DNA from: an uncultured Alphaproteobacteria bacterium
GTDB taxonomy: Bacteria; Pseudomonadota; Alphaproteobacteria; Methylaequorales; Methylaequoraceae
NCBI GenBank assembly: GCA_902526865.1
Contig: CABZMK010000001.1
Location: 45,768 to 109,767, forward strand
Direction: 5' to 3'
Length of the DNA stretch: 64,000 nucleotides
In this document: piece by piece, positions 8,291 to 43,720 of the stretch
How positions within the stretch are numbered: position 1 is the first letter of the stretch
Layout of the letters: every line of letters starts with the position of its first letter
Notes under the pieces: model-generated
Databases searched by the model: none
Seen by the model: only the letters and a program-made list of their open reading frames with translations
Told to the model about the DNA's origin: nothing
Position numbers and translations under genes: made by a program

Positions 8291-8564
8291 AAATTTTATC
8301 CGCCATTTTTAAAATATCCCTATTTGTCAAGACTCTAGAAATTCTATTCATTACACTATTATCATTGTCGTTTTTATATTTCTTCATTAGTTTAACAAAT
8401 TCATCCTTATCTAAATTATTTATAGATGGGATTTTTTTAGTAGTATCTCTATTTAGGTTATGGCAGGATTTACAATTTTCAACGATTAAGTTTATAGTTT
8501 GATCCTCACCAGCAAACAAAGAAATAGAAAAAAAGAGAATAAAATAAAATGAAATTTTATTCAT
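8277..8564 (-). CDS. Small monoheme c-type cytochrome (probable FccA-like partner subunit)
   Basis: 95 aa; signal peptide plus single CKSCH heme-binding motif; overlaps fccB start by 14 nt. Confidence 0.6.
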   Translation of the reverse strand: MNKISFYFILFFSISLFAGEDQTINLIVENCKSCHNLNRDTTKKIPSINNLDKDEFVKLMKKYKNDNDNSVMNRISRVLTNRDILKMADKIYGKK

Positions 8565-9873: not shown

Positions 9874-9875
9874 TT

Positions 9876-11159: not shown

Positions 11160-11160
11160 T

Positions 11161-11805
11161 TTATTCTTTCTTTAAAAAATCAATCATATTTTGGGCTCTT
11201 AAACCTAATGAAGCTGGTTTATTTGGAAGCATTTTAATTTCTTCAAAAGTTTCTAATGCTTCTTTCTTTTTATCATTTTTTAAATAAATGAAAGCAGTCA
11301 ATTCAAGTGCTGATGATTTCCAGATCAAACTATTTTTTAATGGACCCAATTTATCTAAAAGTTTTTCTGGCGGTTCAAAATCTAAAGAATTCATTACAAA
11401 AAGGATTGTAGCGATGTCTCTGAATGATTGATCAACTGCATTTTTTTCAAGATCTAAATAAATATCAAGTCCTTCATTTCTATCGCCTTTAGCAATTAGT
11501 ATGGATGCTTTTTTTATTTTTGCCATAGTTACATATCCATCTGAACCTTTATCTACTATTCTGTCTAGTGCAAGCAATGCCGCGTCAATATCTTCTTCAT
11601 TTGAAAGTTCAACTGCTGCAGAGAAATCATCACCGAGTTGTTGTTTAGTTTTATTTGTGTAATTTTCCCAAAATACATATCCGCTTGTACTTAAAATTAC
11701 ACCTAAAGAAATACTGACAACATAAGGAAGTATTCTTTTCCAAAGTTTAAGTCTTTTCTCTTCTTTTAAATCCTCATCAACTTCTCTAATAAATTCTTCG
11801 CTCAT
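11161..11805 (-). CDS. YfgM-like membrane-anchored TPR protein
   Basis: 214 aa; single N-terminal TM and TPR-like helical domain; conserved yfgM-bamB-der gene order. Confidence 0.45.
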   Translation of the reverse strand: MSEEFIREVDEDLKEEKRLKLWKRILPYVVSISLGVILSTSGYVFWENYTNKTKQQLGDDFSAAVELSNEEDIDAALLALDRIVDKGSDGYVTMAKIKKASILIAKGDRNEGLDIYLDLEKNAVDQSFRDIATILFVMNSLDFEPPEKLLDKLGPLKNSLIWKSSALELTAFIYLKNDKKKEALETFEEIKMLPNKPASLGLRAQNMIDFLKKE

Positions 11806-11890
11806 TTTTTTATTTATTTTCTCAATTTGTTTAATATCATATATGTAATGTATTTATATTCTATCAAATTAAAATTTCAATTTTATATTT

Positions 11891-12199
11891 ATGAATAATT
11901 TAAAGAAATCCAAAATCATTAGGTTTAAAAAAGAAGAAATACATGAAATTATGGAATTATATTCGAAAAAAATTTCGATAGGTGAATGGAAAGATTATTC
12001 AATAACTTTTCAAAACAGTTACGCTGTATTTGCGATTCATAGATCATTTAAGCACGGACCTTCCTTAGAGATAAAAAAGAATTACAAAAATGACAGTTTT
12101 TTTACACTTTCATCTCAAAATAATATTTTAACAAGTTCTAAAAGTTTAAGAAAAGTGATTAATTACTTAAAGAAACCATATTTAAAGTTAGTCAAATAG
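11891..12199 (+). CDS. Hypothetical small protein (102 aa)
   Basis: ORF only; basic; no recognised motif. Confidence 0.3.
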   Translation: MNNLKKSKIIRFKKEEIHEIMELYSKKISIGEWKDYSITFQNSYAVFAIHRSFKHGPSLEIKKNYKNDSFFTLSSQNNILTSSKSLRKVINYLKKPYLKLVK

Positions 12200-12670
12200 T
12201 TTTTTCATTCCAGAGGTATAACTATCATTTCTACTTTTTGAAAGTCTTTGATAACCCATAACTCCACTGAAGAGATAATCCTTAGTTCCAGATTCCCAAA
12301 TAATTTGTAAGTTTCCATCAACAATTGTCCAATTACCTTTTTCTCCATTTCCATAATTAGTTAAAGCTGTGCCATCATCATTTATTTCAATCAGGAATTC
12401 TGATTGCCATTTATCCAATGCTTTCCATTTACCTACCCATAACTCATTTGAAAAGCATTCAGTAAAAAAAATCAAAAATAAAACTATTATAGTTGTTAAC
12501 TTTCTATTTTTTAAAATAGAAATTATATTTCTTTTCTTATTATCTGAATATTTAGACCAATTACTAATTTCTTCGGGAGTCCTCAAGCAACCCTCACATA
12601 AATTGTTTTTTGGATTTAATTTACATACATTTGTACATGGAGATTTTGTTATCATGTTGTTAGATTCCAT
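12188..12670 (-). CDS. DUF1289-like Cys-rich (Fe-S?) N-domain protein with TM and C-terminal periplasmic domain
   Basis: N-terminal CTNVCKLNPKNNLCEGC four-Cys motif characteristic of DUF1289/YdhL-type proteins; one TM. Confidence 0.45.
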   Translation of the reverse strand: MESNNMITKSPCTNVCKLNPKNNLCEGCLRTPEEISNWSKYSDNKKRNIISILKNRKLTTIIVLFLIFFTECFSNELWVGKWKALDKWQSEFLIEINDDGTALTNYGNGEKGNWTIVDGNLQIIWESGTKDYLFSGVMGYQRLSKSRNDSYTSGMKKLFD

Positions 12671-13272
12671 CCTCTTATTACATATTCAACTGCTAAAGCA
12701 CCTAAAATTAATCCAAATAACTTTTGTAGGACATTCAAAATAGTTTTGTTAAACAGCTTCATAAAAAAATTAGAAAAGATGATAATTATAGAAGTCAAAA
12801 ATAATGTCAATACTATTGGAAAGATTTGGGTATAAAAACTCACCATTGTGTAGTTAATATCTTTTGAAATTAAAACTGATAGTGTGATAGCTGAAGGACC
12901 AGCAACTAATGGAATTGAAATAGGAAATACAGCCAAATTATTCAATTCATGCTCATCAATTAATTCATTGGCGATTGTTGTCTTTCTTTTAACCCTTTTT
13001 TCAAATACCATTTCATAAGAAATAATTAAAAGGAAGAAACCTCCAATAATTTGGAAAGATGATATAGATATACCCATAAAGACTAAAAAAGAATTACCAT
13101 ATAATGAAAAAAAGATTAATACACCACATGTAATCAAAAATACAAAACCAGAGAGTTTAATTGTTTTTTTTGTATTTAAACCTTGAGTGATTATTGTTAA
13201 AATAGGTATTAAAGAAATAGGATCAATAGCAACGAATGCTTTTAAAAAATTCTGGAGAAACAAATCATGCAT
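12652..13272 (-). CDS. marC: MarC-family (UPF0056) integral membrane protein
   Basis: 206 aa, six predicted TM segments; MarC family-like N-terminus (FVAIDPISLIPILT). Confidence 0.6.
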   Translation of the reverse strand: MHDLFLQNFLKAFVAIDPISLIPILTIITQGLNTKKTIKLSGFVFLITCGVLIFFSLYGNSFLVFMGISISSFQIIGGFFLLIISYEMVFEKRVKRKTTIANELIDEHELNNLAVFPISIPLVAGPSAITLSVLISKDINYTMVSFYTQIFPIVLTLFLTSIIIIFSNFFMKLFNKTILNVLQKLFGLILGALAVEYVIRGWNLTT

Positions 13273-14178
13273 AAAAAAAAATTTATAGTATCCAGCTTTT
13301 ATAAATTTGTCTATCTAAGAAATCCTGCTGTAATTAAAAAAAAACTATTAATTAATTTAGAAAAATTCAAAATTAAAGGAACCTTCATCCTTGGAACAGA
13401 AGGTATCAATGCTTCTTTTTCTGTGTCAACAGAACAATTTGATAAAGTTAAAGATTCAATACGAAATTTAATTTCAACTGAAATTAAATTTAAAAATCAA
13501 TTTAATAATAATCATTCTTTTTTAAGACTGAAAATCAAAGAAAAACAAGAAATTATATCTCTAGGACAAAAAAATGTTTCTCCAGAAGAAACAACTGGTT
13601 TTTTTGTTGCCCCTGATTCGTGGGACAAGTTTATTTGTGATCCAGATTCTATAATTATTGATACAAGAAATGAATATGAATCTGATATAGGTTCTTTTAA
13701 AAAGTCTGTAAAAACTAAAACTAATAATTTTAGAGAATTTCCAATTTGGTTTGAAAAACATAAGAAAAAACTTTTTGAAAAAAAAATCGGAATGTTTTGT
13801 ACTGGCGGGATCAGATGTGAAAAAGCAAGTAATTTTTTAATCAATAAGGGATATAAAAACATCTTTCAACTTGATGGTGGAATTATTGAATATTTAAATA
13901 AAACTAAAAATAAGAGTAAGATGTGGAAAGGTGAATGTTTCGTTTTTGATGAAAGAGTTTCATTAAATGATAAACTTGAAAAAGGATTGTATTCACAATG
14001 TTTTGCTTGTAGAGCTGCTTTAACTTACGTTGACACTAAATCAAGGTATTTTAAATTAGGAGTATCGTGCCCAAAATGTTTTAAAGAAAAATCGAAAAAG
14101 CAAAAAGCTAGGTATAAGGAACGACGAAGACAAATGCAAATTGCAAAAAAAAAAGGAATGAAACATATAGGTAGTTAG
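13267..14178 (+). CDS. trhO: Rhodanese-domain protein TrhO/YceA family (tRNA U34 hydroxylase-like)
   Basis: 303 aa; UPF0176 N-domain, rhodanese domain with active-site Cys ([12 protein letters not shown]), C-terminal Cys pairs and Lys-rich tail. Confidence 0.7.
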
Positions 14179-15239
14179 TCATTTCCGAGTTTTGGAATTG
14201 AGTATTTTTTCATTTTTTCAATTAAAGTTGTTCTATTTATTTTCAAGCATTTTGAGGCCTCAGTTACAGATCCGTTGCTTTTTTTTAGTGCTCCTTCTAT
14301 TAAATTAAATTCAACATCGCTTAAGTGTCTTCTAAGATCTATTTTATCTAAAAAGTCGAACCATTTTTTATAATGATTTGGGTGTGGCATTGAATCAGAA
14401 TGAGAACTTGCTTCAATTTGAATTGGAGAAAGGTCGGAGGTCATTGTCCATAACTCCTCTTTCTCCTGTGAGATGTCAGGTAGATTAATTTTTAAAAGAT
14501 TTTCTTTAATATTTTTGCCATTGATTTTTTTATCTGGAAAAATTATTACTGCTCTCTCAATAACATTTTTTAACTCTCTTACATTACCTGGCCATACATA
14601 TTCCTGAAGTGCTTTTATGCCTGTATTATCAATTTGAGGAATAATAGATCCATTGTATTTTAAATCGTCTAAAATATGATTTACAAGAATTGGGATATCA
14701 TCCTTTCTCTCTGCAAGCGAAGGAATTTCAATTGGAAAAACGTTTATCCTAAAAAATAAATCTGCCCTAAAATGACCCTCATCAATTTTTTTTTCAATGT
14801 CTTGGTGTGTAGCACAAATCAGTCTTAAATTAAGATCAATTTCTTTTCTGCCTCCAACACGTTGAATTTTTCTAGTTTCAATTGCCCTTAGTAATTTAGC
14901 CTGAAGTGCCATAGGCATGTCACCTATTTCATCCAAAAATAAGGTGCCATTGTTAGAGGCCTCAAATCTTCCTTCTCTTTTTGAGTCTGCACCAGTAAAT
15001 GCACCTTTTTCATGACCAAATAGCTCAGATTCTAAAAGCTCGGACGGGATTGCTGCACAATTAACGTTTATTAATTCACCATTTCTTTTTGATGATTCAT
15101 GAATAGCCCTAGCAACTACATCTTTACCACACCCTGTCTCACCTCTGAGTAAAACTGTTGAGTTTGATTTTGCAACCATCTCTACAAGTTTTTTTAATTG
15201 TAAAGTTACCTCACATTTTCCTTTGATGATTTCTGACAT
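14175..15239 (-). CDS. Sigma54-dependent transcriptional activator (AAA+ domain plus Fis-type HTH, no receiver domain); FleQ-like flagellar master regulator candidate
   Basis: 354 aa; Walker [15 protein letters not shown] motif ([10 protein letters not shown]), C-terminal HTH ([16 protein letters not shown]); divergent from the fleT-fliE operon. Confidence 0.8.
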
Positions 15240-15397: not shown

Positions 15398-15430
15398 TTT
15401 AGATTGAAAACGAAAATAAAGGATTTAAAT

Positions 15431-16588
15431 ATGAAGGAAATATTTATTATTAAAGATTGTTTTGAAGTACACAATGATATACGCGATTTTTTTAGTAAAA
15501 AAGGAAAGGAAATAAAATTAATTGATTCTGATGAAATCAGCGAAATTAAAAGCTCTCAATCCATACTGATTATTGATAAAAAATTCGAAAACAAACAAGG
15601 TGGTAAATCAAATATTCTTAAAGTTGCTAGAAATATAGGTTCTACAAAGTTAATAGTTTTGGATTCAGGAAATGATTGTAGTTATGATTTAAAAAAAGAA
15701 ATGGGCGGAGCTTACATTCAAATTTCTTTCAAAATTATTGATGAGGTTATAAAAGAAATTATTTTTCAAATTATATCTAAGGAAAAGTACAGTTTCTCTG
15801 ATAAGAAAACACTTTCTTTAATAAACATGGTTGAAAAAGTTTCGAAAACTGATGTTACAGTATTCATTCATGGGCCAACCGGAACTGGAAAAGAAGTTAT
15901 TTCAAATCTTATTCATAAAAAGTCGGATAGACATGAAAAGCCTTTTATTGCGATTAATTGTGCTGCAATTCCAGAAAATATGCTTGAAGCAATGTTATTT
16001 GGACATGAAAAAGGCGCTTTTACAGGAGCTTCTTCTGCCAATAAAGGAATTTTTCGAGCTGCGGATAATGGCACACTACTTCTTGATGAAGTATCTGAAA
16101 TGCCGCTGTCCCTCCAAGCAAAACTTCTCAGGGTTCTCCAAGAAAAAAAAGTTACTCCCATTGGCGGACAAAGAGATATTGATGTAAATGTAAGAGTAAT
16201 TGCAACAACGAATAGAGATATGTTAGACGAAGTAAGAGAAAAAAAATTTAGAGAGGATTTATATTATAGACTTAATGTATTCCCAATAGAAACACATAAT
16301 TTATCTGAAAGACCTGATGATATTTTACCAATAAGTATTGCTCTGTTGAATAGACACACAGAAAACAGCCCCTTACCTTACATCAATAAAGATGCTCAAA
16401 AATTATTAAGAGAGTATAGTTGGCCTGGAAATGTTAGAGAGTTAGAAAATGTTCTACAAAGAGCCATAGTTCTTTGTGAAAAAAATATTATTGAGGGTAA
16501 AGACATAATGATAGATGTGTCAAAACAAAGTAATTTTTATAATAACATTCAAGAAAATTTATCAGAAAAAAAATTGATGCAAGCTTAA
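15431..16588 (+). CDS. Sigma54-dependent activator lacking an obvious C-terminal DNA-binding domain, with REC-like N-domain (FleT-like)
   Basis: AAA+ sigma54-interaction domain ([18 protein letters not shown]); no HTH after the AAA+ domain. ATG at 15431 has SD AAGGA; the ORF-track TTG at 15404 would precede the predicted transcription start. Confidence 0.75.
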   Translation: MKEIFIIKDCFEVHNDIRDFFSKKGKEIKLIDSDEISEIKSSQSILIIDKKFENKQGGKSNILKVARNIGSTKLIVLDSGNDCSYDLKKEMGGAYIQISFKIIDEVIKEIIFQIISKEKYSFSDKKTLSLINMVEKVSKTDVTVFIHGPTGTGKEVISNLIHKKSDRHEKPFIAINCAAIPENMLEAMLFGHEKGAFTGASSANKGIFRAADNGTLLLDEVSEMPLSLQAKLLRVLQEKKVTPIGGQRDIDVNVRVIATTNRDMLDEVREKKFREDLYYRLNVFPIETHNLSERPDDILPISIALLNRHTENSPLPYINKDAQKLLREYSWPGNVRELENVLQRAIVLCEKNIIEGKDIMIDVSKQSNFYNNIQENLSEKKLMQA

Positions 16589-25399: not shown

Positions 25400-25801
25400 A
25401 TGAATGCAGAAACCGCAGAAAAAGATAAAAATCAAACCGAGCAAGCTCAGGAAGAAACTAAGGCACCTGAAGCCTCAGCTGAAAATCAGGTCAATAAACC
25501 TGAGACAGAATCCACAAAGACCGCAGACAAAAATACTGCAGCAGTAAGTAATTTGAGACTTCTGGAAAACATAGAAGTAAAACTTACTGTTGAAGTTGGA
25601 AATACTGAAATTAAAATCAAAGACTTGTTAAGATTAAATGAAGGATCAGTTGTTGAACTAGATAGATTGGCTGGAGACGCTTTAGATATTTTAGCAAATG
25701 GGACAAAAATTGCTAAAGGCGAAGTTGTTATGGTTGGTGAAAAATTTGGTATAAGATTTACTGAAGTTGCTACCCCAGAGGAACTAATTGAAAACTTATA
25801 A
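25400..25801 (+). CDS. fliN: Flagellar motor switch protein FliN
   Basis: 133 aa; C-terminal SpoA domain (LLRLNEGSVVELDRLAGDALDILANGTKIAKGEVV). Confidence 0.85.
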   Translation: MNAETAEKDKNQTEQAQEETKAPEASAENQVNKPETESTKTADKNTAAVSNLRLLENIEVKLTVEVGNTEIKIKDLLRLNEGSVVELDRLAGDALDILANGTKIAKGEVVMVGEKFGIRFTEVATPEELIENL

Positions 25802-28097: not shown

Positions 28098-28112
28098 AAA
28101 GGATATAATTGA

Positions 28113-29264
28113 ATGGCAGAAGACAAAGACGAAAGTCAAGAAAAAACCGAGGAACCAACCGCCCGAAGACTTGAAAAAGCAAAAGAGGATGGGAAAGTTC
28201 TGTCTTCAAAAGAAGCTTTTGTTTTTAGTTCAATGTTCATGGGAGTATTACTATTTTATCTAGCTCCAATGCTTTTAGACGATTTTTTAAAAATTTGTAA
28301 ATCTCTATTTTCGTTTGGGCCAGAGTTAGCCTCTGGAAAGTCTCCTCTGGAATCTGTTACTGTAGTTGTAAAATTTTTCATTCAAGTATTTTTAATTTTT
28401 TCAATACCACTATTAGTAGTAAGTGTTCTAACGCAATTTTTAATCGGTGGAATAAACTTCTCCTTAAAGTCAGTTTACTGGAAGTTTGAAAAAATGAATC
28501 CAATTAAAGGATTAAAAAGAATATTTTCACTTAAAGGATTAGTAGAGTTAGTTAAAGCTATATTGAAAGTCAGTCTTCTTGGTCTGGTAGCTTTTTATCT
28601 GATTGAAAATAATTTATCTGATTTAGTCAACTTAACAACTGCTAATATTTTTTCCGCAGTAAATAGACTTTTTTCTTTTTTTCCAGAAATAATTGCCTAT
28701 CTCCTTGTCGTTCTCGCATTCATAGCTTTTATAGATGTGGTTTACCAAAAGTATGATTATATTAAGCAACTAAGAATGTCTCATCAAGACCTCAAAGACG
28801 AATACAAAGAAACTGATGGACAACCAGAAGTCAAACAAAAAATAAGAAAACTTCAAGCCGAAGCTGCAACAAAAAGTAGAAAAGAAGCATCGTCTGTTGA
28901 TAACCTTGAAGAAGCTACTGCAATAATTACAAACCCAACACACTTTGCCGTAGCTCTGAAATATGAGGTTGGGGACGCAAAAGCTCCTACAATTATATCA
29001 AAAGGAAGAGGTAAAATTGCTGAATCTATAATTAAGAAAGGAAAAGAACTTAAGATTGGTACAATGCAAAGTCCTAAACTGGCAAGAGCAATATACTATA
29101 CATCTGAAATTGGTGATGAAATTATGAGTAAGCTTTACAATGCTGTTGCTATTGCCTTAGCATATATTTATAAAATAGATAATGGAGAAGAAATTGAGAA
29201 ACCAGAGATAGAGGTACCTGAAGATATGATTTTTGATGAGTTTGGGAGAAAAAATGATCAATAG
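28113..29264 (+). CDS. flhB: Flagellar export apparatus switch protein FlhB
   Basis: 383 aa; four TMs then cytoplasmic domain with NPTH autocleavage motif (ITNPTHFAVAL). Confidence 0.9.
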   Translation: MAEDKDESQEKTEEPTARRLEKAKEDGKVLSSKEAFVFSSMFMGVLLFYLAPMLLDDFLKICKSLFSFGPELASGKSPLESVTVVVKFFIQVFLIFSIPLLVVSVLTQFLIGGINFSLKSVYWKFEKMNPIKGLKRIFSLKGLVELVKAILKVSLLGLVAFYLIENNLSDLVNLTTANIFSAVNRLFSFFPEIIAYLLVVLAFIAFIDVVYQKYDYIKQLRMSHQDLKDEYKETDGQPEVKQKIRKLQAEAATKSRKEASSVDNLEEATAIITNPTHFAVALKYEVGDAKAPTIISKGRGKIAESIIKKGKELKIGTMQSPKLARAIYYTSEIGDEIMSKLYNAVAIALAYIYKIDNGEEIEKPEIEVPEDMIFDEFGRKNDQ

Positions 29265-29475
29265 AAATATTTCACAACTAATTGTTACTGTTGCATTTCT
29301 TTACAGCTCACTAATATGCCACTTTAAGGCTATCGAAGTGTTCGAAGAGAAAAATTTTTTGCTTGCTTTATTTCTTTGGTTTTGTGCTTTAACTTCTTTT
29401 TGTGGTGCGTTAAGATTCCAAATTGCAAAACTATATTATAAAATAAGAGATCTAACAAAAAATGAACCAAAATAA
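29233..29475 (+). CDS. Small membrane protein (80 aa), translationally coupled to flhB
   Basis: Two hydrophobic helices; overlaps the flhB 3' end; no homology recognised. Confidence 0.35.
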   Translation: MMSLGEKMINRNISQLIVTVAFLYSSLICHFKAIEVFEEKNFLLALFLWFCALTSFCGALRFQIAKLYYKIRDLTKNEPK

Positions 29476-29662
29476 CTGTAATAACTGCACGCACTTTTAT
29501 GTGACCCACAAGAAAAACTTTCCTTATGGTTGTAAAGCATTTGGTGTAATTTCAAAAAATAATCCATATTTAGAAATAAAGAAAGTTTCTGGCACAGATT
29601 GTGCACTATTTCAAAAAAAACAAAAAAGTGTTAAAACATTTAATAAAGGAAGAATTGCATGA
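29462..29662 (+). CDS. Cys4 mini-protein (66 aa), possible zinc ribbon
   Basis: CNNC...C...C spacing (Cys 6, 9, 24, 47); overlaps neighbouring ORFs by stop/start. Confidence 0.35.
   Translation: MNQNNCNNCTHFYVTHKKNFPYGCKAFGVISKNNPYLEIKKVSGTDCALFQKKQKSVKTFNKGRIA
29590..29605 (+). promoter_or_regulatory. Sigma54 promoter-like element TGGCAC-N5-GTGCA inside the Cys4 ORF
   Basis: Perfect -24 TGGCAC and GG-N10-GC spacing, about 55 bp upstream of the coiled-coil gene start. Confidence 0.4.
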
Positions 29663-30384
29663 CACAACAACTTAATGCAATGCAAGAAAGCATAAAAATA
29701 GCTTTGGATGCGGCCGACGCAGCCACTGATGTGACCTCAGAATATAAAAGAATTAAAAACGAATATTTAAAGACGGAGCAAAAAATGAAAGAAATTCACA
29801 AATATACAACAATCATTTTTTCAAGTTCAATTGCCACAGCTGTAATAGCAATTATTTTAACAGGATTATTATATTTTAAATCACTTTCAGAACTTGAAGA
29901 TATGACAAGTACTAGTCGAGAAGCTCTAGTTGTATTTGCTGAAAATGTTGAAAATGTTAACAAAGCTGTAGATAATATGAATCAAAGTTTGGCTAGACAT
30001 ACTGATCTATTAAATGCTAGTGACGAGATGAAAGTTAAACTTGAAGAACTTTCAAACGCAATTAATTCAAATGATAAAAAACTTATGCTAAATTTATCAA
30101 AGGAAATATCAAACCTATCATCCGGGCTTTCTAAATCAATTAAAAACGAGGCAGACAAACTCAATAAGTCAATTCAAGAGTCAGGTGTAGTCACCTCCGC
30201 TAGTGTTAACAAAGAAATTGGTAAACTGTTGAAAGATAATAAGAAGAATCAAAATGTTAAACTTTTAAAAGAACTTTCTAATAGCACCTCTTCATTAAAT
30301 GCAGCACTCGAAGCGATTTCTAGCCAAAATAAACAGTTAGTTAAGGAAATAACAGATCAAAAAGAAAGCATAACTTTCCCATAA
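29659..30384 (+). CDS. Membrane-anchored coiled-coil protein (241 aa)
   Basis: One TM (IIFSSSIATAVIAIILTGLLYF) followed by long heptad-rich domain; unknown function. Confidence 0.45.
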   Translation: MTQQLNAMQESIKIALDAADAATDVTSEYKRIKNEYLKTEQKMKEIHKYTTIIFSSSIATAVIAIILTGLLYFKSLSELEDMTSTSREALVVFAENVENVNKAVDNMNQSLARHTDLLNASDEMKVKLEELSNAINSNDKKLMLNLSKEISNLSSGLSKSIKNEADKLNKSIQESGVVTSASVNKEIGKLLKDNKKNQNVKLLKELSNSTSSLNAALEAISSQNKQLVKEITDQKESITFP

Positions 30385-30391
30385 TAATATT

Positions 30392-31192
30392 ATGTCTGAA
30401 ACAAAAGAAGGAAATTTTTTCTTAAAAATTAATAAAATAAATGGTGGAAGTCATGCAGCAAATAATTTCTTAAAGCCAGACGATATAATTGTTGCACTTG
30501 ATAATCAGATTTATACTTTCGGTGAAAAACAACTAACTTCTGATTTAAAAGAATTAAAAAAAAGTAATCAAAAGTCTATGCTCACAGTTTTAAGAGAGGA
30601 TATATTTTTTAATTTGTTAATAGAAAATAGTTTAGGTTGCAAATTTACCACAACTACAGCTGAGGAAACCAATAAAATTAAATCTGATTATTTATCACAA
30701 GAAGTAAATGATCTTGACGAATTAAAAGAATTTATTGGAATGAGAGACGTTTACAGAAACTACGAAGTCATTGAAAATGCTAATTCTTTATCAGCAGGCA
30801 TTTTTCCCCCACTTTGGTTAGCTTATTCACAAAAATGGTGGCTTTTGTTTCTATTTACAGCAATTATGGCAGTATCCTTATCAGTTAATATTTATGTTTT
30901 TTTCTTGGGGTGGTTACTAACTTCAATTTACTGTTATAAAGCCCAATTAAACCTTCTCTTCAGCTTTTCCATGCTAGAGGGAAAAGTTTTTTGTGTAAAA
31001 TTGTTGTCTAAATCAATTGATGAGGCTCAAAAAACCATAAGAAAGCTTGACCCAAAATCCAAATTTAAATTTTCAAAACTACCAAAACCACTTGTAGAAG
31101 AGGTTGAAAAAGATAAAAAAGACGACAACGTTAACAAAAAAGACAGTAATAAAGAAAACATTGTTGATGAAAATCAGACAGTAATAGTATAA
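30392..31192 (+). CDS. Membrane protein with N-terminal PDZ-like segment and DUF2628-like TM region
   Basis: INKINGGSHAANNFLKPDDIIVALDNQ resembles the PDZ ligand-binding region; FPPLWLAYSQKWWLLFLF resembles the DUF2628 motif; Lys-rich tail. Confidence 0.4.
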   Translation: MSETKEGNFFLKINKINGGSHAANNFLKPDDIIVALDNQIYTFGEKQLTSDLKELKKSNQKSMLTVLREDIFFNLLIENSLGCKFTTTTAEETNKIKSDYLSQEVNDLDELKEFIGMRDVYRNYEVIENANSLSAGIFPPLWLAYSQKWWLLFLFTAIMAVSLSVNIYVFFLGWLLTSIYCYKAQLNLLFSFSMLEGKVFCVKLLSKSIDEAQKTIRKLDPKSKFKFSKLPKPLVEEVEKDKKDDNVNKKDSNKENIVDENQTVIV

Positions 31193-31201
31193 ACTATACA
31201 T

Positions 31202-31801
31202 ATGGTAGCTGATAAATATACAATCCAAGCTGAAACTTTAATGAAGGCAGCGATTGAGGAATATACTGAAGTAATTCAAGAAGTGAAGTCATCTGATGCT
31301 AATTTAACGACGCTTAAAGGCATCAGAATCAATATTCAAGGCAAACCAAGACGATTGGTGGATGTCGGAGATATAAAAAAAACTGAAAACGAAAATGTTG
31401 TTCAAATTTTAGTTTTCAACACAGATCATATACCTCTATTAACTGAAAAAATCGATGAAGTTGAGTTCAATTACGAAGTTGATGGACAATTCATTAACAT
31501 TGATCTGCCAGAACCCAGTTATAAACAATTAATGGAAGTTGTCGACGATCTAAATAGAAAGAAAAATTCTGGTTTAGCCAGACTGACTAAGGCTAAATCC
31601 GAAGCAACCACAAGGGCAAGAACAGCACTCGAAAATGATTTCATTACTCAGGGTGTTGCTAATGCAGTTTCCAGGAAATGTTCAGAAATGCACGAGCTAT
31701 ATTCGTCTAAAGTCAACGAACTTACAATTGAGAAGATAAAGGAAATTCTTGGTAACGAATATTTTGAAAAATATAAAAACGAAGAACTTGAATATGAGTG
31801 A
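31202..31801 (+). CDS. Divergent ribosome recycling factor (RRF/Frr)-like protein
   Basis: 199 aa. Pattern alignment to RRF: (IQGKPRRL vs YYGTPTPL), (ILVFNTDHIPLLTEKI vs INVFDRSMSPAVEKAI), (INIDLPEPSYKQL...ARLTKAKSEATTRARTALEND vs IRVPLPPLTEERRKDL...ARVAVRNVRRDANDK). Confidence 0.35.
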   Translation: MVADKYTIQAETLMKAAIEEYTEVIQEVKSSDANLTTLKGIRINIQGKPRRLVDVGDIKKTENENVVQILVFNTDHIPLLTEKIDEVEFNYEVDGQFINIDLPEPSYKQLMEVVDDLNRKKNSGLARLTKAKSEATTRARTALENDFITQGVANAVSRKCSEMHELYSSKVNELTIEKIKEILGNEYFEKYKNEELEYE

Positions 31802-32725
31802 TTAAAGTTTCAAATTTAAGTTTGACCCAATATTTTCATTTTTAAGATCCATATATTTTTTATTAATTAAGTCTTTGTTTTTCAGAACATTTTTATTTTT
31901 TTCAACTTCCAGAGAGCTAGGACTCCAGCTCGGATAATGAAAATTGATTTCTCCAAATTTTTCTTCTTTAAACTTTTTATTTTCGTTTTTATCTTTTATC
32001 AACCCAGATATTTGATTATTTATTTTTACTAACTCAGACTTACCATCAAAAGCTAAAGTAATATTTTGTTTATTTTCCAAAACAACTGGTTTAGTCGAAT
32101 ATTTATTTATATTACTTTCAATAGCCTTATTTTTATTTTCGATACCTATATTTTTGAAGTTGGAATAGTTAGTTTTTTCAAAATTATTTTTAGTAGATGC
32201 TACATAATTTTTAATGCCAGGTTTTTGGTTACCTTTCCACCATTCTCCGTAATTATTTTTATTAGCAATAACCACTGAAGAATTTTTGTTATCATCTATT
32301 TTATTATTTTCTGCAATCTGACTCTCTTTTTTCTTATCGTCTTTCCAAAGATTGCTTATTCCTGTGGCATCTAGCGCCAGTTCTGACGGTGTTTTATCAA
32401 ATATTTTATTAAAAACCCAGTTTCCAAAACCAACAATCGCTCCAATCGGACCACCATACATAAAACCACCGAGACTATTTTGAACTAAGTCTCTATCGGA
32501 TTTACTATCTTCAGAATTTATGCTTGAATAAATTCCACTTATAATTGGAAGATTTTGGAAAGGGTTAACCAACCCTCTAAACCAATCCCAAAAAGAGAAA
32601 TCGTCTTTTCCGGGTTCATTAACCTTTATATCGTTTAAAAGGTGTTGATTTTTAGGTTCTATATTTTCTTTTACAGGGGAAACGGTATTTTTAGAAATAT
32701 GAAATGGACTATTTTCTATTATCAT
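31802..32725 (-). CDS. Hypothetical protein (307 aa) co-transcribed downstream of motB
   Basis: Glycine-zipper-like hydrophobic segment GGFMYGGPIGAIVGFGNWVF; N/K-rich C-terminal half; start abuts the motB stop. Confidence 0.45.
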   Translation of the reverse strand: MIIENSPFHISKNTVSPVKENIEPKNQHLLNDIKVNEPGKDDFSFWDWFRGLVNPFQNLPIISGIYSSINSEDSKSDRDLVQNSLGGFMYGGPIGAIVGFGNWVFNKIFDKTPSELALDATGISNLWKDDKKKESQIAENNKIDDNKNSSVVIANKNNYGEWWKGNQKPGIKNYVASTKNNFEKTNYSNFKNIGIENKNKAIESNINKYSTKPVVLENKQNITLAFDGKSELVKINNQISGLIKDKNENKKFKEEKFGEINFHYPSWSPSSLEVEKNKNVLKNKDLINKKYMDLKNENIGSNLNLKL

Positions 32726-32726
32726 T

Positions 32727-33911
32727 TTAATAATTTATCTCAATTTCAATTCTTCTATTTTTTGCTCTTCCCTGAGAAGTGTCATTTGACTCTACTGGTC
32801 TTGTCTCTCCGTAACTGATCGCCTTCATTCTTTTTGGATCAAGAGTAGCGTTTCTTGATAGTTGTTGAACCACTGAGGCAGATCTTGCTGCTGCGAGATC
32901 CCAATTGTCTCTATAATTTGACCCAAATGTAAGTGGCACGTTGTCCGTATGACCCATAACCAATATCTCGCTTCTACCTTTTTTATTTTGTTCTGCTATT
33001 TTAGACATTATATCTCTTGCCTTGTTGGTAAGTTCAGCAGATCCTGACTTGAACGCACCAGCAGACCCAACAGTTATTATCACTTTATCGTCCTCTCTAT
33101 CAACATTAACAAGACCTTCCCCAATTTCTTGTTTCAGTGCAATTTTTAATTTGTCCTCAGCCAACTCTGCTTTTTTAGCCTCTTCTTTTGCTGATTGGCT
33201 TTGTTCAGATTGACCTACACTTTCCCCATCTTCCCCTTCAGCCTCATTTTTACCTTTTTGAGAAGACGCAGTTGCAAGATCAGCAAGCTGTTTTTCTAAG
33301 CCACCAATTAAAATTTCAGATTCTGATTTTCCTGATGCAGCCTTAACAGATTCCACAGCATTTAAAGTCTCTTGAAGAAGTTGAGGTAGTTCTTTCTCGT
33401 CTGCCTCTGTTGGTGTAAAGTTAACAACAACTTTACTCCCCAGAGCTTCGACAGTTATATCACCTCTTGCAATAGCTTCTTGAATATTTTTGGCAAGTTC
33501 TTTTGCATCCTCAGTTTCACCGTCATCCTTTGTGTTATCTTCTTGCTTGGTTTGAAGTTCTACTTTAGGTTGATCAGTCTCTGTCGTTTGTTGTTTTAAA
33601 TTATCTTGAACTGCTGGAGTGGGGTTTGGACTAAAATTAAGAGATAGTATTGTCGTTCCTTTTGGTGGTTCGACAACAGGTATAACTCTTTGTATTCCAA
33701 AAGCATTCTTCATACTACCACTTATTTGTTTAAATTTTGGTACATTAAATTCTGCAAAAGAGAGGATTAAAACAAAAAAAGCCATTAATAGTGTTGCCAT
33801 ATCGGCAAAGGTTGCCATCCAGGCTGGCGCCCCCTTCGGAGGACATTCTGGGCATTCATGTTCCTCTTCCTCGTTAGAGGTCTCTTGATTTTCGGTTTTT
33901 TCCTCAGCCAT
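32727..33911 (-). CDS. motB: Flagellar motor stator protein MotB (OmpA-like peptidoglycan-binding C-terminus)
   Basis: 394 aa; single TM after acidic N-terminus; OmpA/MotB domain (ILVMGHTDNVPL...NWDLAAARSASV...GRAKNRRIEI). Confidence 0.85.
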   Translation of the reverse strand: MAEEKTENQETSNEEEEHECPECPPKGAPAWMATFADMATLLMAFFVLILSFAEFNVPKFKQISGSMKNAFGIQRVIPVVEPPKGTTILSLNFSPNPTPAVQDNLKQQTTETDQPKVELQTKQEDNTKDDGETEDAKELAKNIQEAIARGDITVEALGSKVVVNFTPTEADEKELPQLLQETLNAVESVKAASGKSESEILIGGLEKQLADLATASSQKGKNEAEGEDGESVGQSEQSQSAKEEAKKAELAEDKLKIALKQEIGEGLVNVDREDDKVIITVGSAGAFKSGSAELTNKARDIMSKIAEQNKKGRSEILVMGHTDNVPLTFGSNYRDNWDLAAARSASVVQQLSRNATLDPKRMKAISYGETRPVESNDTSQGRAKNRRIEIEINY

Positions 33912-33921
33912 GATTTAAACT

Positions 33922-34695
33922 TTAGCCTCCAGCTGCAGCTTCCAAGAGTTTTTGTTTTTCTTTTGGAGGCAGATTTGCAACAAGTTGGTCTTGGATATTT
34001 CTAGGGCTTTCACCTCTTGAAATGAATTGTAAACCTGTAATAATCATCTCCCTGTAGGTAGTTTCGTAAGCTGAATAGCCTTTTAACTTTATCACAATCG
34101 GCATGAAAATCGTATTTGCGATCATAGCCCCATAAAGCGTGGTTAAAAGAGCAACAGCCATTGCAGGACCTATTGCTTTTGGATCAGCCATATTTCCTAA
34201 CATCGCAACTAATCCTACTAAAGTTCCAATCATTCCCATAGCGGGTGCTATGTCTACCCAAGATTGAGCACAACCAATGTTTTTCTCATGACGAACTTGC
34301 ATAGCCTTAAGTTCTTTTTTTAATTGAACAGTTAGTTTTGATTCGTCTGCTCCGTCAACAAGCATTTGTAAACCATTATCAAAAAACGGATCAGGCGTCT
34401 CTTGACCTTCAAGTGCCATCATTCCGTCTTTTCTTGCAATACCTGCTAACTCGACTATCCTTTCAATAAGTTCATCCATTTTTTTCACTGGCGGTTTAAA
34501 AGCCTTACCAAAGGCTCCGAAAGAACCGAGGTAAACGGGTAAAGGAGCTGTATACATCACAGCGAAAAAAGAACCACCAAAAACAATTAAAATTGAGGGA
34601 ACGTCAATGTAAGATCCCAAACCTCCGGCCGAAATCATCGCACCTGCAATCATACCTATTGTGCCAAGAAATCCTATTATTGTAGCTAAATCCAT
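33922..34695 (-). CDS. motA: Flagellar motor stator protein MotA
   Basis: 257 aa; MotA/TolQ/ExbB proton-channel family TM pattern. Confidence 0.85.
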   Translation of the reverse strand: MDLATIIGFLGTIGMIAGAMISAGGLGSYIDVPSILIVFGGSFFAVMYTAPLPVYLGSFGAFGKAFKPPVKKMDELIERIVELAGIARKDGMMALEGQETPDPFFDNGLQMLVDGADESKLTVQLKKELKAMQVRHEKNIGCAQSWVDIAPAMGMIGTLVGLVAMLGNMADPKAIGPAMAVALLTTLYGAMIANTIFMPIVIKLKGYSAYETTYREMIITGLQFISRGESPRNIQDQLVANLPPKEKQKLLEAAAGG

Positions 34696-34810: not shown

Positions 34811-35284
34811 ATGATTAAAAAGCAACTCATAATATGTTTTTCACTGTTATTTTTTAAAAGTGTCTTCGCTTCTAATTTCATAGACAAAGGATATTATGTC
34901 ATAGATTTAAAAAATAAGATCGAATGGCTAAAATGTACTACTGGTCAACAGTGGAGTGACGAAAAACAAGCATGTCTGGGAACTGCTGTAAAATTGGACT
35001 TGAAATCTGTTGAAGAGGCAAATAATCTTCTCAATGAGCAAATTGAGGGTGAGTGGAGATTGCCATCACGAAAAGAGCTTGAAAGCTTAATTTGTAAAAG
35101 TTGTGAGGGAGCAAAAATTGATAAAACTTTTTTTCCTAACACACCAGCGGAACCTTTTTGGACTTCGCAAAGAAATTGGTGGTCGCCCAAGTTTTTTTGG
35201 TCGGTAAATTTCTTTACGGGACATTCTTACGGAAGATTTGTCCCCGAAAAAGAACTCTTTATAAGATTCGTGAAGGATCGTTAA
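34811..35284 (+). CDS. Secreted DUF1566 (Lcl C-terminal domain-like) protein
   Basis: 157 aa; signal peptide; GEWRLPSRKELESL motif typical of DUF1566. Confidence 0.55.
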   Translation: MIKKQLIICFSLLFFKSVFASNFIDKGYYVIDLKNKIEWLKCTTGQQWSDEKQACLGTAVKLDLKSVEEANNLLNEQIEGEWRLPSRKELESLICKSCEGAKIDKTFFPNTPAEPFWTSQRNWWSPKFFWSVNFFTGHSYGRFVPEKELFIRFVKDR

Positions 35285-40751: not shown

Positions 40752-41174
40752 ATGTTTTCTAGAAATCCAGATAAAACTGTAAAAAAAACCTCAACTTCTT
40801 CTAGTGTAATTGGTACCGAAATGCAAATTAATGGTAATATAAAGTGTAGTGGAAAATTAGTGCTTAAAGGAATTGTTAAAGGTAATATTGAATGTGAACA
40901 TGTTCATATTTCTGCTGAAGGAAATCAAAAAGGTAATATAAAAGCTTTCGAATGTATAATTGGAGGTAACTTTGAAGGAGATGTTACTGCTGAATCACTC
41001 TCAATCGAATCTGCAGCCAACATAAAAGGAAATATGTATTACAATAGTTTAAGTGCAAGACCTGGGGCTAATTTAGAGATTCAGCTTTTCCGTGGATTAG
41101 ATAAAAGAATTGAAGATAAAAGTTCAGAAAAAGAAAAAAAAAAGAAACAAACAAAAAAATCTAAGGGTATCTAA
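40752..41174 (+). CDS. Bactofilin (DUF583/CcmA) paralog 1 with Lys-rich C-terminal tail
   Basis: 140 aa; repeated beta-helical G-x-V/I-x-G pattern (GKLVLKGIVKGNIECEHVHISAEGNQKGNIKA...). Confidence 0.75.
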   Translation: MFSRNPDKTVKKTSTSSSVIGTEMQINGNIKCSGKLVLKGIVKGNIECEHVHISAEGNQKGNIKAFECIIGGNFEGDVTAESLSIESAANIKGNMYYNSLSARPGANLEIQLFRGLDKRIEDKSSEKEKKKKQTKKSKGI

Positions 41175-41176
41175 TA

Positions 41177-41530
41177 ATGGCAGATAATCAATCAATTATA
41201 GGAAGAGGAGCAATATTTAAGGGTAAAATTTCTAATGCATCAACTATAGAAATTAATGGAAGAGTCGAAGCAGATATTAAATCTGACAAGGTAACACTTG
41301 GAAAACATGCTTCACTTGAAGGTTCAATAATCTCTGAGTTAGTTGTAATCTCTGGAAATTATCAAGGTAAAATTAAAGCTGATTCTGTTTGGCTCACAGA
41401 TTCTTCTGTTATTACTGGAGAAATTAATTACAAATCACTTCAGATGGACAGAGGAGCGGCGCTTAACTGTAAGATCATCCACAATTGGGATGAAAATAAG
41501 TTAAAAAATAATAAACAGATCGAGGATTAA
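41177..41530 (+). CDS. Bactofilin paralog 2
   Basis: 117 aa; bactofilin beta-helix repeats (IGRGAIFKGKISNASTIEINGRVEADIKSDKVTLGKHASLEGSI). Confidence 0.8.
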   Translation: MADNQSIIGRGAIFKGKISNASTIEINGRVEADIKSDKVTLGKHASLEGSIISELVVISGNYQGKIKADSVWLTDSSVITGEINYKSLQMDRGAALNCKIIHNWDENKLKNNKQIED

Positions 41531-41532
41531 AC

Positions 41533-41850
41533 ATGAGTGATATCACTTACATTAACAAAAATCTTCTAATGGAAGGGCAATTAGAATCGAAAGATGGTCA
41601 AGTTGTTATAGCGGGAAATTTTAAAGGTAATATCGTTGCTAAATTCGTAATTATTGAACCTACTGCGTTATTTAATGGAAACATAAATGCGGAACACCTA
41701 AAAGTAGAGGGTAAAGTTGACGGAGATATTACAGCTGACCTTTTGGAAGTAGGTAACAGTGGGGTAATTGACGGTAAATTAAAAACAAATTCACTTTCGG
41801 TCGATACTGGAGCTCAAATTTCAGGTAATGTTGGTAGAATTTCTAGTTAG
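41533..41850 (+). CDS. Bactofilin paralog 3
   Basis: 105 aa; bactofilin repeats (VVIAGNFKGNIVAKFVIIEPTALFNGNINAEHLKVEGKVDGDITAD). Confidence 0.8.
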   Translation: MSDITYINKNLLMEGQLESKDGQVVIAGNFKGNIVAKFVIIEPTALFNGNINAEHLKVEGKVDGDITADLLEVGNSGVIDGKLKTNSLSVDTGAQISGNVGRISS

Positions 41851-42179: not shown

Positions 42180-42563
42180 ATGAAAAAGAAACAACAGAAT
42201 TTACCAGCCAAAACTAAACAAAACGAAGTTATAACTGTTAATCAAGAAAAAACCAAAACACTTGATATAACTAACAAACTTCATCATTTTAAAAATAGAT
42301 CTGAAGTCAGAAAATTTCTTCCAGATATACTTGGAAGAGTTCTAGCAAGAATTTGGATAGATTCGAAATTTAAAGAAGAGTTTGAGCAAGATCCTCAGAA
42401 AACCCTGGAATTTAACGGTGTATATCTTCCGGAAGATATGTCAATAGAATTTCAAAAGCCTAACTCTGATAGACCAAGAATTGTTGTGTATGAACAAAGA
42501 CCAAACTCCAAGTTTAGACTTAGAGTTTTATATCTGCAGTTGATAATGATGGCGGGAAGGTGA
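42180..42563 (+). CDS. NHLP (nitrile hydratase leader peptide)-like domain protein
   Basis: LARIWIDSKFKEEFEQDPQKTLEFNGVYLPEDMSIEF aligns with the NHLP/NHase-alpha N-terminal family pattern (AKAWxDxxFKxxLLxNPKxxLxExGxxLPE); no GG cleavage motif or obvious core. Confidence 0.45.
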   Translation: MKKKQQNLPAKTKQNEVITVNQEKTKTLDITNKLHHFKNRSEVRKFLPDILGRVLARIWIDSKFKEEFEQDPQKTLEFNGVYLPEDMSIEFQKPNSDRPRIVVYEQRPNSKFRLRVLYLQLIMMAGR

Positions 42564-43210
42564 AACAATTTATTTTAATTTCATTAGCTTTCATGCTCAT
42601 TAAGCAATTTTCTTTAGCAGAAACATCAACATCAGATTATAAATATCTAAATGATATGGACTACTATAATAGTGGGGTCGATCTCTATGAAAAGGGTGAG
42701 TTTAAAAAATCGTTTATTGTTTTTTTTAATCTTTCTGAAAAAGGGAATAAAAACGCAATATTTAATTTATCAAATATGTATTTTGAGGGTATCGGAACTG
42801 CTCAAGACTATAGTAATTCACTCAAGTATACTTGGCTTTGTTCATTAAACGGAAATAAAAAATGCTTAAATAAAATAAAATCAATAAAAGATAAACTAGA
42901 AGAAGACGAGTTTTTAAAAATTTCCACAACTATCCCTGAAATTCTTGAAAATGGGTATGTTAACGATAACAACCCAATATCAGCCTTTCAGTTGGGTTAT
43001 TGGTATGAAAAAATTTCTCCAGAAATTGATTTTGAAAAATCATATTTATGGTATTCTGTATCTGTAAGCTCAGGGCTTTATAAGGCTATGAAAATGAGAG
43101 ATAGAGTTGGTAAGTTAATTGAAAAAAAAAAAATAACTGAAATTCAACTTCAGGCTAACGAAATACTTACAAAAAATAAATATTTTAATTCAAAGAAGGA
43201 TGTGGAATGA
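42560..43210 (+). CDS. Secreted Sel1/TPR-like repeat protein
   Basis: 216 aa; signal peptide; Sel1-like repeats (AIFNLSNMYFEGIGTAQDYSNSLKYT; AFQLGYWYEKISPEIDFEKSYLWY); GTG start overlapping the upstream stop. Confidence 0.5.
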   Translation: MKQFILISLAFMLIKQFSLAETSTSDYKYLNDMDYYNSGVDLYEKGEFKKSFIVFFNLSEKGNKNAIFNLSNMYFEGIGTAQDYSNSLKYTWLCSLNGNKKCLNKIKSIKDKLEEDEFLKISTTIPEILENGYVNDNNPISAFQLGYWYEKISPEIDFEKSYLWYSVSVSSGLYKAMKMRDRVGKLIEKKKITEIQLQANEILTKNKYFNSKKDVE

Positions 43211-43449
43211 TTTTTAAAGTTCACTGGATTGTCGACGGACTAGCAGAAATAGAAGCTAAAAACAAAGAAGAGGCAGAAAAGATCTTACAAGAAGATCTAG
43301 AAGATTATGTTAAAAATTCTGATCCTCTAATGAATAAATTTGTTGCAAAGTCAATTCAAGGATCTGCATATATGCCTGGATCAGATGAAGAAACATCTAC
43401 AAAAACTAATATTGAGAATAAAGAAAAGCCTGATGAGGAAAATTCTTAG
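43207..43449 (+). CDS. Hypothetical acidic small protein (80 aa)
   Basis: ORF only; ATGA overlap with the upstream gene. Confidence 0.3.
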   Translation: MIFKVHWIVDGLAEIEAKNKEEAEKILQEDLEDYVKNSDPLMNKFVAKSIQGSAYMPGSDEETSTKTNIENKEKPDEENS

Positions 43450-43720
43450 CCTTTTTATATTATTTTGTTTTCTGACCCCCCTTTTGGTTGATTCCTTGCC
43501 AAAAACTAAGGGTAGAACCTATGCACCTGAAGAGGGAACATTCGACAGAAGGAAAAGAATTGTTATTCAACCAAAATGTAGACTGATTAGTGAGAGAAAA
43601 GTCCCTGGTGATGTTGTTTGTACTTATCAATCTCAGAAAAGAGGAGCCAAAGATAAAGAGATATACCTTGGTTCACCAGGGAACACATGTCAAAAAGAAA
43701 TAACCTGTCCTAAAAAATAA
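43433..43720 (+). CDS. Small secreted four-cysteine protein (96 aa from ATG 43433)
   Basis: Signal peptide MRKILSLFILFCFLTPLLVDSL; four Cys. The ORF-track start at 43340 overlaps the upstream gene and lacks a signal peptide. Confidence 0.4.
   Translation: MRKILSLFILFCFLTPLLVDSLPKTKGRTYAPEEGTFDRRKRIVIQPKCRLISERKVPGDVVCTYQSQKRGAKDKEIYLGSPGNTCQKEITCPKK

Follow-up and report, generated by a model that had tools for sequence, protein, structure and literature searches.

We analyzed a 64-kb window (64,000 nucleotides, G+C content ~30%) from an uncultured alphaproteobacterium, in which flhB, the final recognised gene of a fliK/L-fliR-flhB export-apparatus operon, is followed on the same strand by a cassette of five open reading frames (ORF1 to ORF5). 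The last of them encodes a protein with the fold of the ribosome recycling factor (RRF); public records name its homologues 'ribosome recycling factor' or 'hypothetical'. FlhB itself gave 348.5 bits against TIGR00328 (cutoff 349.25), which we judged to be a genuine match. A preliminary description of this DNA had presented the five ORFs as unrecognised genes, possibly for lineage-specific flagellar accessory proteins, co-expressed with the export operon and each overlapping its neighbour. The number of genes and their strand were correct, and so were the overlaps at the flhB/ORF1, ORF1/ORF2 and ORF2/ORF3 junctions, but ORF3 and ORF4 are separated by a short gap, as are ORF4 and ORF5. The start of ORF1 also had to be moved from a TTG at 29233, which would give 80 aa, to a conserved ATG at 29254. 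From 28100 to 31800, which takes in flhB and the whole cassette, the + strand shows no terminator-like site, and the stop codon of ORF5 directly abuts that of a convergent 307-aa gene, with zero spacer. The five genes are laid out as an extension of the flhB operon, in the same direction.

By scanning one genome per GTDB species, we identified a homologue of ORF5 in 28 species representatives, and the junctions of the cassette were compared in 23 orthologous loci (Table 1). Wherever the contig was long enough, the order fliR-flhB-ORF1-ORF2-ORF3-ORF4-ORF5 was kept, with the 307-aa gene, motB and motA converging from the other side; the cassette always adjoins flhB in these 28 species. All five ORFs are syntenic, with ratios of nonsynonymous to synonymous substitution rates (dN/dS) of 0.02 to 0.23, and ORF3 and ORF5 are under tighter constraint than FlhB. 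Low dN/dS and conserved synteny indicate that all five are genuine coding genes, and not spurious ORFs missing from close relatives. In two loci derived from long reads (L001 and L037), the cassette is split into many short ORFs, apparently by frameshift errors and not by pseudogenisation.

Table 1. Position, junctions and conservation of flhB and the five cassette genes, and position of other features of the 64-kb window
Feature	Position	Strand	Description	Junction with the preceding gene (in relatives)	Identity to window (%)	dN/dS vs close relatives
flhB	28113..29264	+	Pfam Bac_export_2, 339.8 bits		58-98	0.04-0.06
ORF1	29254..29475	+	73-aa inner-membrane protein, two transmembrane helices	11-nt overlap with flhB stop, from start ATG 29254 (8-11 nt overlap)	49-96	0.07-0.20
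ORF2	29462..29662	+	66-aa basic soluble protein; four invariant Cys (C6, C9, C24, C47)	14-nt overlap (4-14 nt overlap)	45-97	0.08-0.23
ORF3	29659..30384	+	241-aa bitopic membrane protein; most conserved cassette gene	4-nt overlap, ATGA (invariant)	63-99	0.02-0.03
ORF4	30392..31192	+	266-aa membrane-anchored PDZ protein	7-nt gap (4-12 nt gap)	38-98	0.09-0.13
ORF5	31202..31801	+	199-aa soluble acidic protein, two-domain RRF fold	9-nt gap (3-36 nt gap)	57-98	0.02-0.03
Sigma54 -24/-12-type element	29590..29605	+	TGGCACAGATTGTGCA; TGGCAC-N5-GTGCA, GG-N10-GC, one mismatch
Other sigma54-like sites	15382, 22388, 25699, 38010(-), 38653(-), 40725
Sigma54 activator with HTH_8 DNA-binding domain	14175-15239	-	first of divergent pair
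Sigma54 activator without helix-turn-helix, FleT-like	15404-16588	+	second of divergent pair; immediately before fliF
motA-motB-307-aa gene operon	31802..34695	-	convergent to ORF5; Pfam MotA_ExbB, MotB_plug, OmpA
307-aa gene	31802-32725	-	third gene of the motA-motB operon; no Pfam or NCBIfam match
Lcl_C-domain protein	34811-35284	+	157 aa, signal peptide; between motA and rpoN
Three tandem bactofilin genes	40752-41850		sigma54-like site in front

ORF5 had been described as RRF-like from its translation, and the profile searches agreed. The Pfam RRF family (PF01765) matched it with 46.2 bits (gathering score 29.7) over profile positions 5-164 of 164, and the profile of the ORF5 family aligns end to end with solved RRFs with an E-value of about 1e-10. 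The protein has the two-domain, L-shaped RRF fold, with a three-helix bundle and an inserted beta/alpha/beta domain. Against the frr equivalog model TIGR00496, however, it reached 30.5 bits for a cutoff of 149.1, five-fold short, and distant members of the family gave 23 bits or nothing. Der, DnaB, RpoN and FliG of the same window exceed their own equivalog cutoffs, which argues that the lineage is not generally hyper-divergent. The RRF signatures GRANP, YYG..TP, LTEERR and RNIRRD are mostly replaced in the ORF5 family: the VSVRNIRRKA segment of the Mycobacterium tuberculosis RRF, for instance, aligns with s-r-l-t-k-i-K-s-d-t, where a single basic position is kept, the invariant K132. In their place, the family has three motifs of its own: an N-terminal YS.(E/Q)A, a (K/R)RR(L/I).D within domain II, and (L/V)EN(E/D)(F/Y)I. 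In the structural model this last motif falls where helix 107-144 ends and in the loop that leads to helix 150-196. This would probably bring it to the tip of the bundle, close to the motif at the N-terminus, and would suggest a new candidate binding site. ORF5 is also net acidic (27 K/R vs 37 D/E), with an acidic C-terminal extension.

The family is small. A phmmer search with ORF5 against 1.84e9 cluster representatives returned only 70 matches at E <= 0.001, many of them fragments, and a canonical-type RRF (P0306) was among the weakest (E 2.5e-4). Searching proteins with the family profile gave only members of the same lineage among the best 120 matches, and an exact-sequence look-up of ORF5 found nothing on record. 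Besides, the pyrH-frr-uppS-cdsA context is absent around the gene. By its scores, motifs and surroundings, ORF5 belongs to a diverged family of RRF paralogues and is not the frr equivalog, so that the 'ribosome recycling factor' label carried by public records is probably mistaken and might distort estimates of completeness and of essential genes for these genomes.

We then classified the neighbourhoods of the family outside the lineage. Scanning metagenomes with distant family members, which share 26-33% identity with ORF5, yielded 80 loci and, with individual look-ups, 89 were classified; in 13 loci the upstream sequence was too short to classify, and several distant representatives lie on contigs of ~2 kb or shorter with no usable context. 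In 41 loci the RRF-like gene comes directly after motB and on the same strand, in the order motA-motB-RRF-like, flanked by Lcl_C, rpoN, M23 peptidase and bactofilin genes on one side, as in the window, and by der-bamB-TPR21 on the other. The latter three genes also exist in the window, at 8.5-11.8 kb (8557-11805), 17 kb from the RRF-like gene across the flagellar cluster, while in the motB-linked locus L099 they follow the RRF-like gene directly (10761-14099). This difference in position implies a rearrangement, by inversion or insertion, that had a breakpoint between the RRF-like gene and motB. Another 32 loci show fliG, a small exported four-Cys protein and then the RRF-like gene. In L045, which comes from a 162-kb contig, this trio occupies 8586-10648, and some 30 similar loci (L042-L078) were found; fliG is full-length and the exported four-Cys protein has 103-108 aa. 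The trio stands isolated among housekeeping genes, with short-chain dehydrogenase and radical SAM genes on one side and genes for a cyclic nucleotide (cNMP)-binding protein, a rhomboid protein and dinB on the other, and in L045-type loci we detected no further flagellar gene within 10 kb. Finally, in L123 an RRF-like gene whose product is 23% identical to ORF5 closes a flagellar run, flgT-flgP-flhA-flhF-flhG-fliA-flgF, from which it is separated by a 172-aa gene with the same four-Cys domain, and it is followed by a 132-aa gene, a Sel1-repeat gene and rpoN. The flagellar-linked members of the family are 23-35% identical to ORF5. The family is thus tied, in four arrangements and in most of the lineages sampled, to torque-generating and other flagellar genes, although not universally.

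One could argue that ORF5 is nothing else than the housekeeping RRF, fast-evolving in a streamlined AT-rich genome and lying beside flagellar genes by accident. The Pfam match above the gathering score and the names given to the homologues by several sources would agree with this, as would the lack of any other frr in the ~650 kb of window and locus sequence that was searched. On the other hand, such an explanation has to account for an equivalog score far under the cutoff in a genome whose Der, DnaB and RpoN pass theirs comfortably, for a family of 70 representatives among 1.84e9 proteins that does not merge with canonical RRFs, for the missing pyrH-frr-uppS context and for a placement beside motor genes that arose repeatedly and independently. 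We consider it very unlikely.

Regarding ORF4, the preliminary description as a 266-aa PDZ-like and DUF2628-like membrane protein was confirmed. The predicted protein has a PDZ fold at residues ~10-100, a beta hairpin (112-128), a transmembrane helical hairpin that resembles DUF2628 (149-183), a small domain after the hairpin, towards the C-terminus (185-219), and a disordered tail whose last residues are hydrophobic and conserved (...EALV/TVIV). Among sequence profiles, Pfam PDZ (PF00595) matched weakly in only 3 of 40 members (best E 0.0044), and DUF2628 (PF10947) gave 18.5 bits for ORF4 (gathering score 23) and sub-threshold matches over the transmembrane hairpin in 32 of the 40 (best E 1e-4). 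Nothing significant was found among PDB sequence profiles. We assign ORF4 as a membrane-anchored PDZ protein, with the PDZ domain predicted to be cytoplasmic. It differs from PDZ proteins of the RseP, MucP or GRASP type in that it has no protease domain and in that its PDZ domain is fused to the DUF2628-like hairpin. A homologue was also detected outside the lineage, in L122 (41% G+C), as the convergent neighbour of an RRF-like gene whose product is 23% identical to ORF5; the hidden Markov model (HMM) match had an E-value of 2.6e-18 and covered ORF4 residues 137-243.

The three remaining genes gave no matches to known families from which a function could be read. ORF1 has the two hydrophobic helices predicted for it, with an N-in/C-in topology according to hydropathy and the positive-inside rule, and conserved motifs AFFYS and LW.CA..SF.G.LRFQIAK. 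The four cysteines of ORF2, which had been described as a Cys4 mini-protein, are invariant among relatives with the spacing C-x2-C-x14-C-x22-C, in a protein with 12 K/R and 2 D/E; the codons of C6, C9 and C24 vary synonymously. ORF2 is likely a zinc-binding mini-protein, to judge from this pattern. No Pfam or PDB relative of it was found, and an alignment scan gave only scattered weak matches to helical proteins. We also considered homology to the small exported Cys4 protein found beside RRF-like genes elsewhere and rejected it, given that the Cys spacing differs, ORF2 has neither a signal nor a transmembrane segment, and there was no HMM match.

ORF3, described beforehand as a membrane-anchored coiled-coil protein, has indeed one transmembrane segment (~52-70) and a long helical C-terminal part. 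It starts with a conserved cytoplasmic helical N-terminus of 48 aa, and the helical part after the membrane segment, of ~170 aa, is predicted to be periplasmic from its charge bias (N-in). Its length is 241 aa without exception, the first ~110 residues are almost invariant, and its rate of evolution is close to that of MotB and lower than that of FlhB in the same genomes. No Pfam or PDB family was found for ORF3 and its matches to helical-repeat proteins were weak and inconsistent. The HMMs of ORF1 to ORF3 had no match in the 89 distant loci, and tblastn searches with ORF3 and ORF5 found no match in plasmids.

The preliminary description had also placed a near-consensus sigma54 element at 29590, within ORF2. 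The element is present, with one mismatch. Searching the window with the pattern TGGCAC-N5-TTGCW and allowing at most one mismatch, we obtained 7 sites for 0.87 expected. Most of the other sites precede, by 12-40 nt, a gene that belongs to the flagellar region or adjoins it: the gene of the FleT-like activator, fliK, the SLT transglycosylase gene, where the match is perfect, or the first of the bactofilin genes. The one at 25699 is inside fliN, upstream of fliO. The element in ORF2 occupies codons S43-G44-T45-D46-C47-A48, which read TCT-GGC-...-TGT-GCN in 23 of 23 orthologous loci, with no change at all in the codons for Ser, Gly and Cys. Only 12% of the Gly codons here are GGC, and elsewhere in ORF2 invariant residues (Cys, Gly, Pro, Ala) are encoded by freely varying synonymous codons. 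The ATG of ORF3 sits 54 nt past the last base of the element, with a conserved AAAGGA Shine-Dalgarno sequence just before it. The element is under a nucleotide-level constraint that exceeds its coding needs, and we read this added constraint as the mark of a probable internal sigma54 promoter for ORF3-5.

Such overlapping signals raise the question of whether ORF1, ORF2 or both are genes at all, or whether their conservation comes from the overlap with flhB, the embedded promoter and the Shine-Dalgarno sequence of ORF3. Neither is long, the sigma54 element lies within ORF2, and the codons of the conserved KGR(L/I)A at the ORF2 C-terminus coincide with the ribosome-binding site of ORF3. We find this hardly credible in view of their dN/dS values of 0.07-0.23, of Cys, Pro and Gly residues that stay invariant while their codons vary synonymously, and of a length and frame conserved in 23 species at 45-97% identity. 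Taken together with the junctions, the internal element indicates that the cassette is composite and not one uniformly overlapping unit: ORF1 and ORF2 seem coupled to flhB, ORF3-5 would stand behind their own sigma54 promoter, and ORF4 and ORF5 form a pair that is found elsewhere too.

The cassette lies in a sigma54-dependent flagellar region that spans 14-41 kb of the window. The region contains fliF-G-H-I-(J)-K-L-M-N-O-P-Q-R-flhB, two sigma54 activators and the convergent motA-motB operon, together with genes for the Lcl_C protein, RpoN, an SltF-like SLT transglycosylase, an M23 peptidase, a SPOR protein and three bactofilins. Canonical clusters had been noted to carry flhA and flhF/fleN after flhB, and we found no flhA, flhF, flhG or fliA anywhere within the 64 kb. 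The Fla1 system of Rhodobacter sphaeroides uses the FleQ/FleT activator pair, one with and one without a helix-turn-helix (PMC7277832). The divergent pair in the window matches this arrangement, which indicates that the flagellar system is Fla1-like or gamma-type, in an alphaproteobacterium.

With moderate confidence, we interpret the region as a composite flagellar accessory module with a repurposed RRF paralogue, belonging to this Rhodobacter Fla1-like or gamma-type, sigma54-dependent system. The earlier proposal of accessory genes co-expressed with the export operon gains from the synteny in 28 species, from the ORF5 relatives beside motB, fliG and flhA-fliA-flgF and from the conserved sigma54 site; what does not hold is the picture of a uniform unit. 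The label 'lineage-specific' applies to ORF1-3, which were found in this lineage only, but not to ORF5, nor to ORF4, which occurs beyond it at least once (L122). In the mechanism that we propose, ORF1-ORF3 would be inner-membrane components made together with the export gate, and ORF3-5 would gain extra expression from the internal sigma54 promoter. The slow evolution of ORF3 and its MotF-like size and topology suggest that it may act as a bitopic protein at the stator or basal body, like MotF or FliL. The PDZ domain and transmembrane hairpin of ORF4 would hold soluble partners at the membrane beside the motor, with the PDZ domain capturing C-termini; its candidate ligands are ORF5, the conserved ...GR(L/I)A C-terminus of ORF2 or the ...EALV tail of ORF4 itself. 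ORF5 would no longer recycle ribosomes and might instead be an assembly factor or a modulator that works on the rotor-stator interface (FliG-MotA) from the cytoplasmic side of the motor, a detail that we hold with less confidence than the general statement. Only tentatively do we advance the more specific idea that the RRF paralogue was exapted into the flagellum and is PDZ-anchored, either as a rotor-stator component or regulator or as a ribosome-binding factor reserved for the flagellum, by which translation would be linked to the export gate.

Several observations weigh against interpreting the cassette as an accessory module with an RRF relative that has left the ribosome. When ~650 kb of window and locus sequence were searched by tblastn for a canonical RRF, only the RRF-like genes came up and no canonical frr. 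ORF5 retains the complete RRF architecture, and K132 is aligned with an Arg of RNIRR, so ORF5 may still bind ribosomes. ORF1, ORF2 and ORF3 were found in this lineage only, and a flagellar role is argued for them from their conserved coupling to flhB. ORF4 and ORF5 are neighbours but not always co-translated, since the gap between them varies from 3 to 36 nt and in L122 they converge. Lastly, one subfamily (P0247/P0244, in L126-L128; 35% identical to ORF5, 25-28% G+C, with no Pfam RRF match on record) is monocistronic between a Na/sulfate symporter gene and a GATase gene, with no flagellar gene in the 1.4-4 kb sequenced on either side.

The second and last of these points would fit the main alternative, in which ORF5 is still ribosomal and has become dedicated to the flagellum: it could release, recycle or park the ribosomes that make flagellar proteins, or join such ribosomes to the export gate, with ORF2 as an RNA- or ribosome-binding partner and ORF4 as an anchor near FlhB. 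The full two-domain fold with its end-to-end alignment, the alignment of the invariant K132 with an Arg of the RNIRR helix motif, the very basic character of ORF2 and the presence of the genes in the same operon as the export-gate protein FlhB are all in line with this proposal, and the non-flagellar context of P0247 is more easily reconciled with a general ribosomal role. Most RRF signature residues are replaced, however, ORF5 is net acidic, and the neighbours of the family elsewhere are parts of the torque machinery (motB, fliG) and not export-gate, flagellin or chaperone genes. For these reasons we think that a flagellar translation factor is unlikely.

It could also be proposed that the cassette is not flagellar and that it represents an envelope, cell-polarity or cell-shape module hitch-hiking on the flhB transcript. 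In genomes of this type unrelated genes are tightly packed, bactofilin, M23, SLT and Lcl_C genes are conserved neighbours, ORF1-3 match no recognisable flagellar family, and the P0247/P0244 subfamily has no flagellar neighbours. Yet the ORF5 family is independently linked to motB, to fliG and to the flhA-fliA cluster, ORF2 holds a sigma54 element of the same type as those preceding flagellar genes, and the overlaps with flhB are strictly conserved, all of which makes this option rather improbable.

In order to contextualize the proposed module, we compared its products with known systems. YcgR, MotI/DgrA and EpsE are soluble proteins that act on the FliG-MotA interface. The neighbours of the ORF5 family, motB and fliG, point to the same place, a likeness that concerns the way of working only: those proteins have PilZ or glycosyltransferase folds instead of an RRF fold, and ORF5 has no motif for binding cyclic di-GMP. 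ORF2 resembles HP0958 (FlgZ) and the zinc-ribbon flagellar regulators in being small, basic and four-Cys, encoded in a sigma54-dependent flagellar operon; it differs from HP0958 in its size of 66 aa and in having no coiled-coil hairpin, and we found no sequence or profile similarity between them. For ORF3, the closest parallel is MotF of Rhodobacter (Cereibacter) sphaeroides Fla1, together with FliL; MotF is a 24-kDa protein with a transmembrane segment at 54-74 and a periplasmic C-terminus, reported to be restricted to Rhodobacteraceae (PMC7277832). Compared by published size and topology alone, ORF3 is likewise bitopic and N-in, with 241 aa and a transmembrane segment at 52-70. The difference is that its gene sits after flhB and behind its own sigma54 element.

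Lineage-specific flagellar accessory genes are known as a kind, as are the PDZ and RRF folds. Flagellar motors owe much of their diversity to accessory proteins of this kind, among them FliL, MotF, FlgT/P and MotX/Y, and each further discovery tends to alter the view of torque generation and stator recruitment. In the searchable literature we found no report of an RRF paralogue tied to flagellar genes or of this cassette, and nothing relevant on the MarineAlpha8, AEGEAN-169 and HIMB59 lineages. The cassette adds five conserved genes to the Fla1-like system of widespread uncultured marine bacteria. If ORF5 acts at the motor, it would represent a new class of motor-associated protein and a clear repurposing of a core translation-factor fold. 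An action on ribosomes would instead point to translational control specific to the flagellum. Exaptation in either role would make it the first translation-factor fold known to be recruited to the flagellar motor, and would define a new family of conserved flagellar genes in an abundant group of marine alphaproteobacteria. The nearest relatives of the window are single-amplified genomes and metagenome-assembled genomes deposited as uncultured marine Alphaproteobacteria, 'Rickettsiales bacterium', 'MarineAlpha8' and 'Pelagibacteraceae bacterium'.

Some further features of the window were recorded. A search for tRNA genes and Rfam elements in the 64 kb found none. The 307-aa gene that converges on ORF5 is poorly conserved (29-88% identity in relatives). 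It fills the slot after motB, which in a related lineage is taken by an RRF-like gene on the same strand as motB. The Lcl_C gene keeps its position in the lineage of the window and in the distant motB-linked loci, and the bactofilins adjoin M23, rpoN, Lcl_C and motAB both in the window and in four of those loci (L096, L099, L105 and L115). Their apparent flagellar-type sigma54 control hints at a link of cell shape or polarity to the flagellum. Further downstream, the genes at 42180-43720 have their homologues on the flanks of the L123 RRF-like gene. They encode a 127-aa protein (57% identical), a protein with Sel1 repeats and a third one that combines a soluble N-terminal domain with an exported four-Cys C-terminal domain. 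In the window, this last protein is split over two frames (43207-43449 and 43340-43720), which may reflect a frameshift, two genes or an assembly error.

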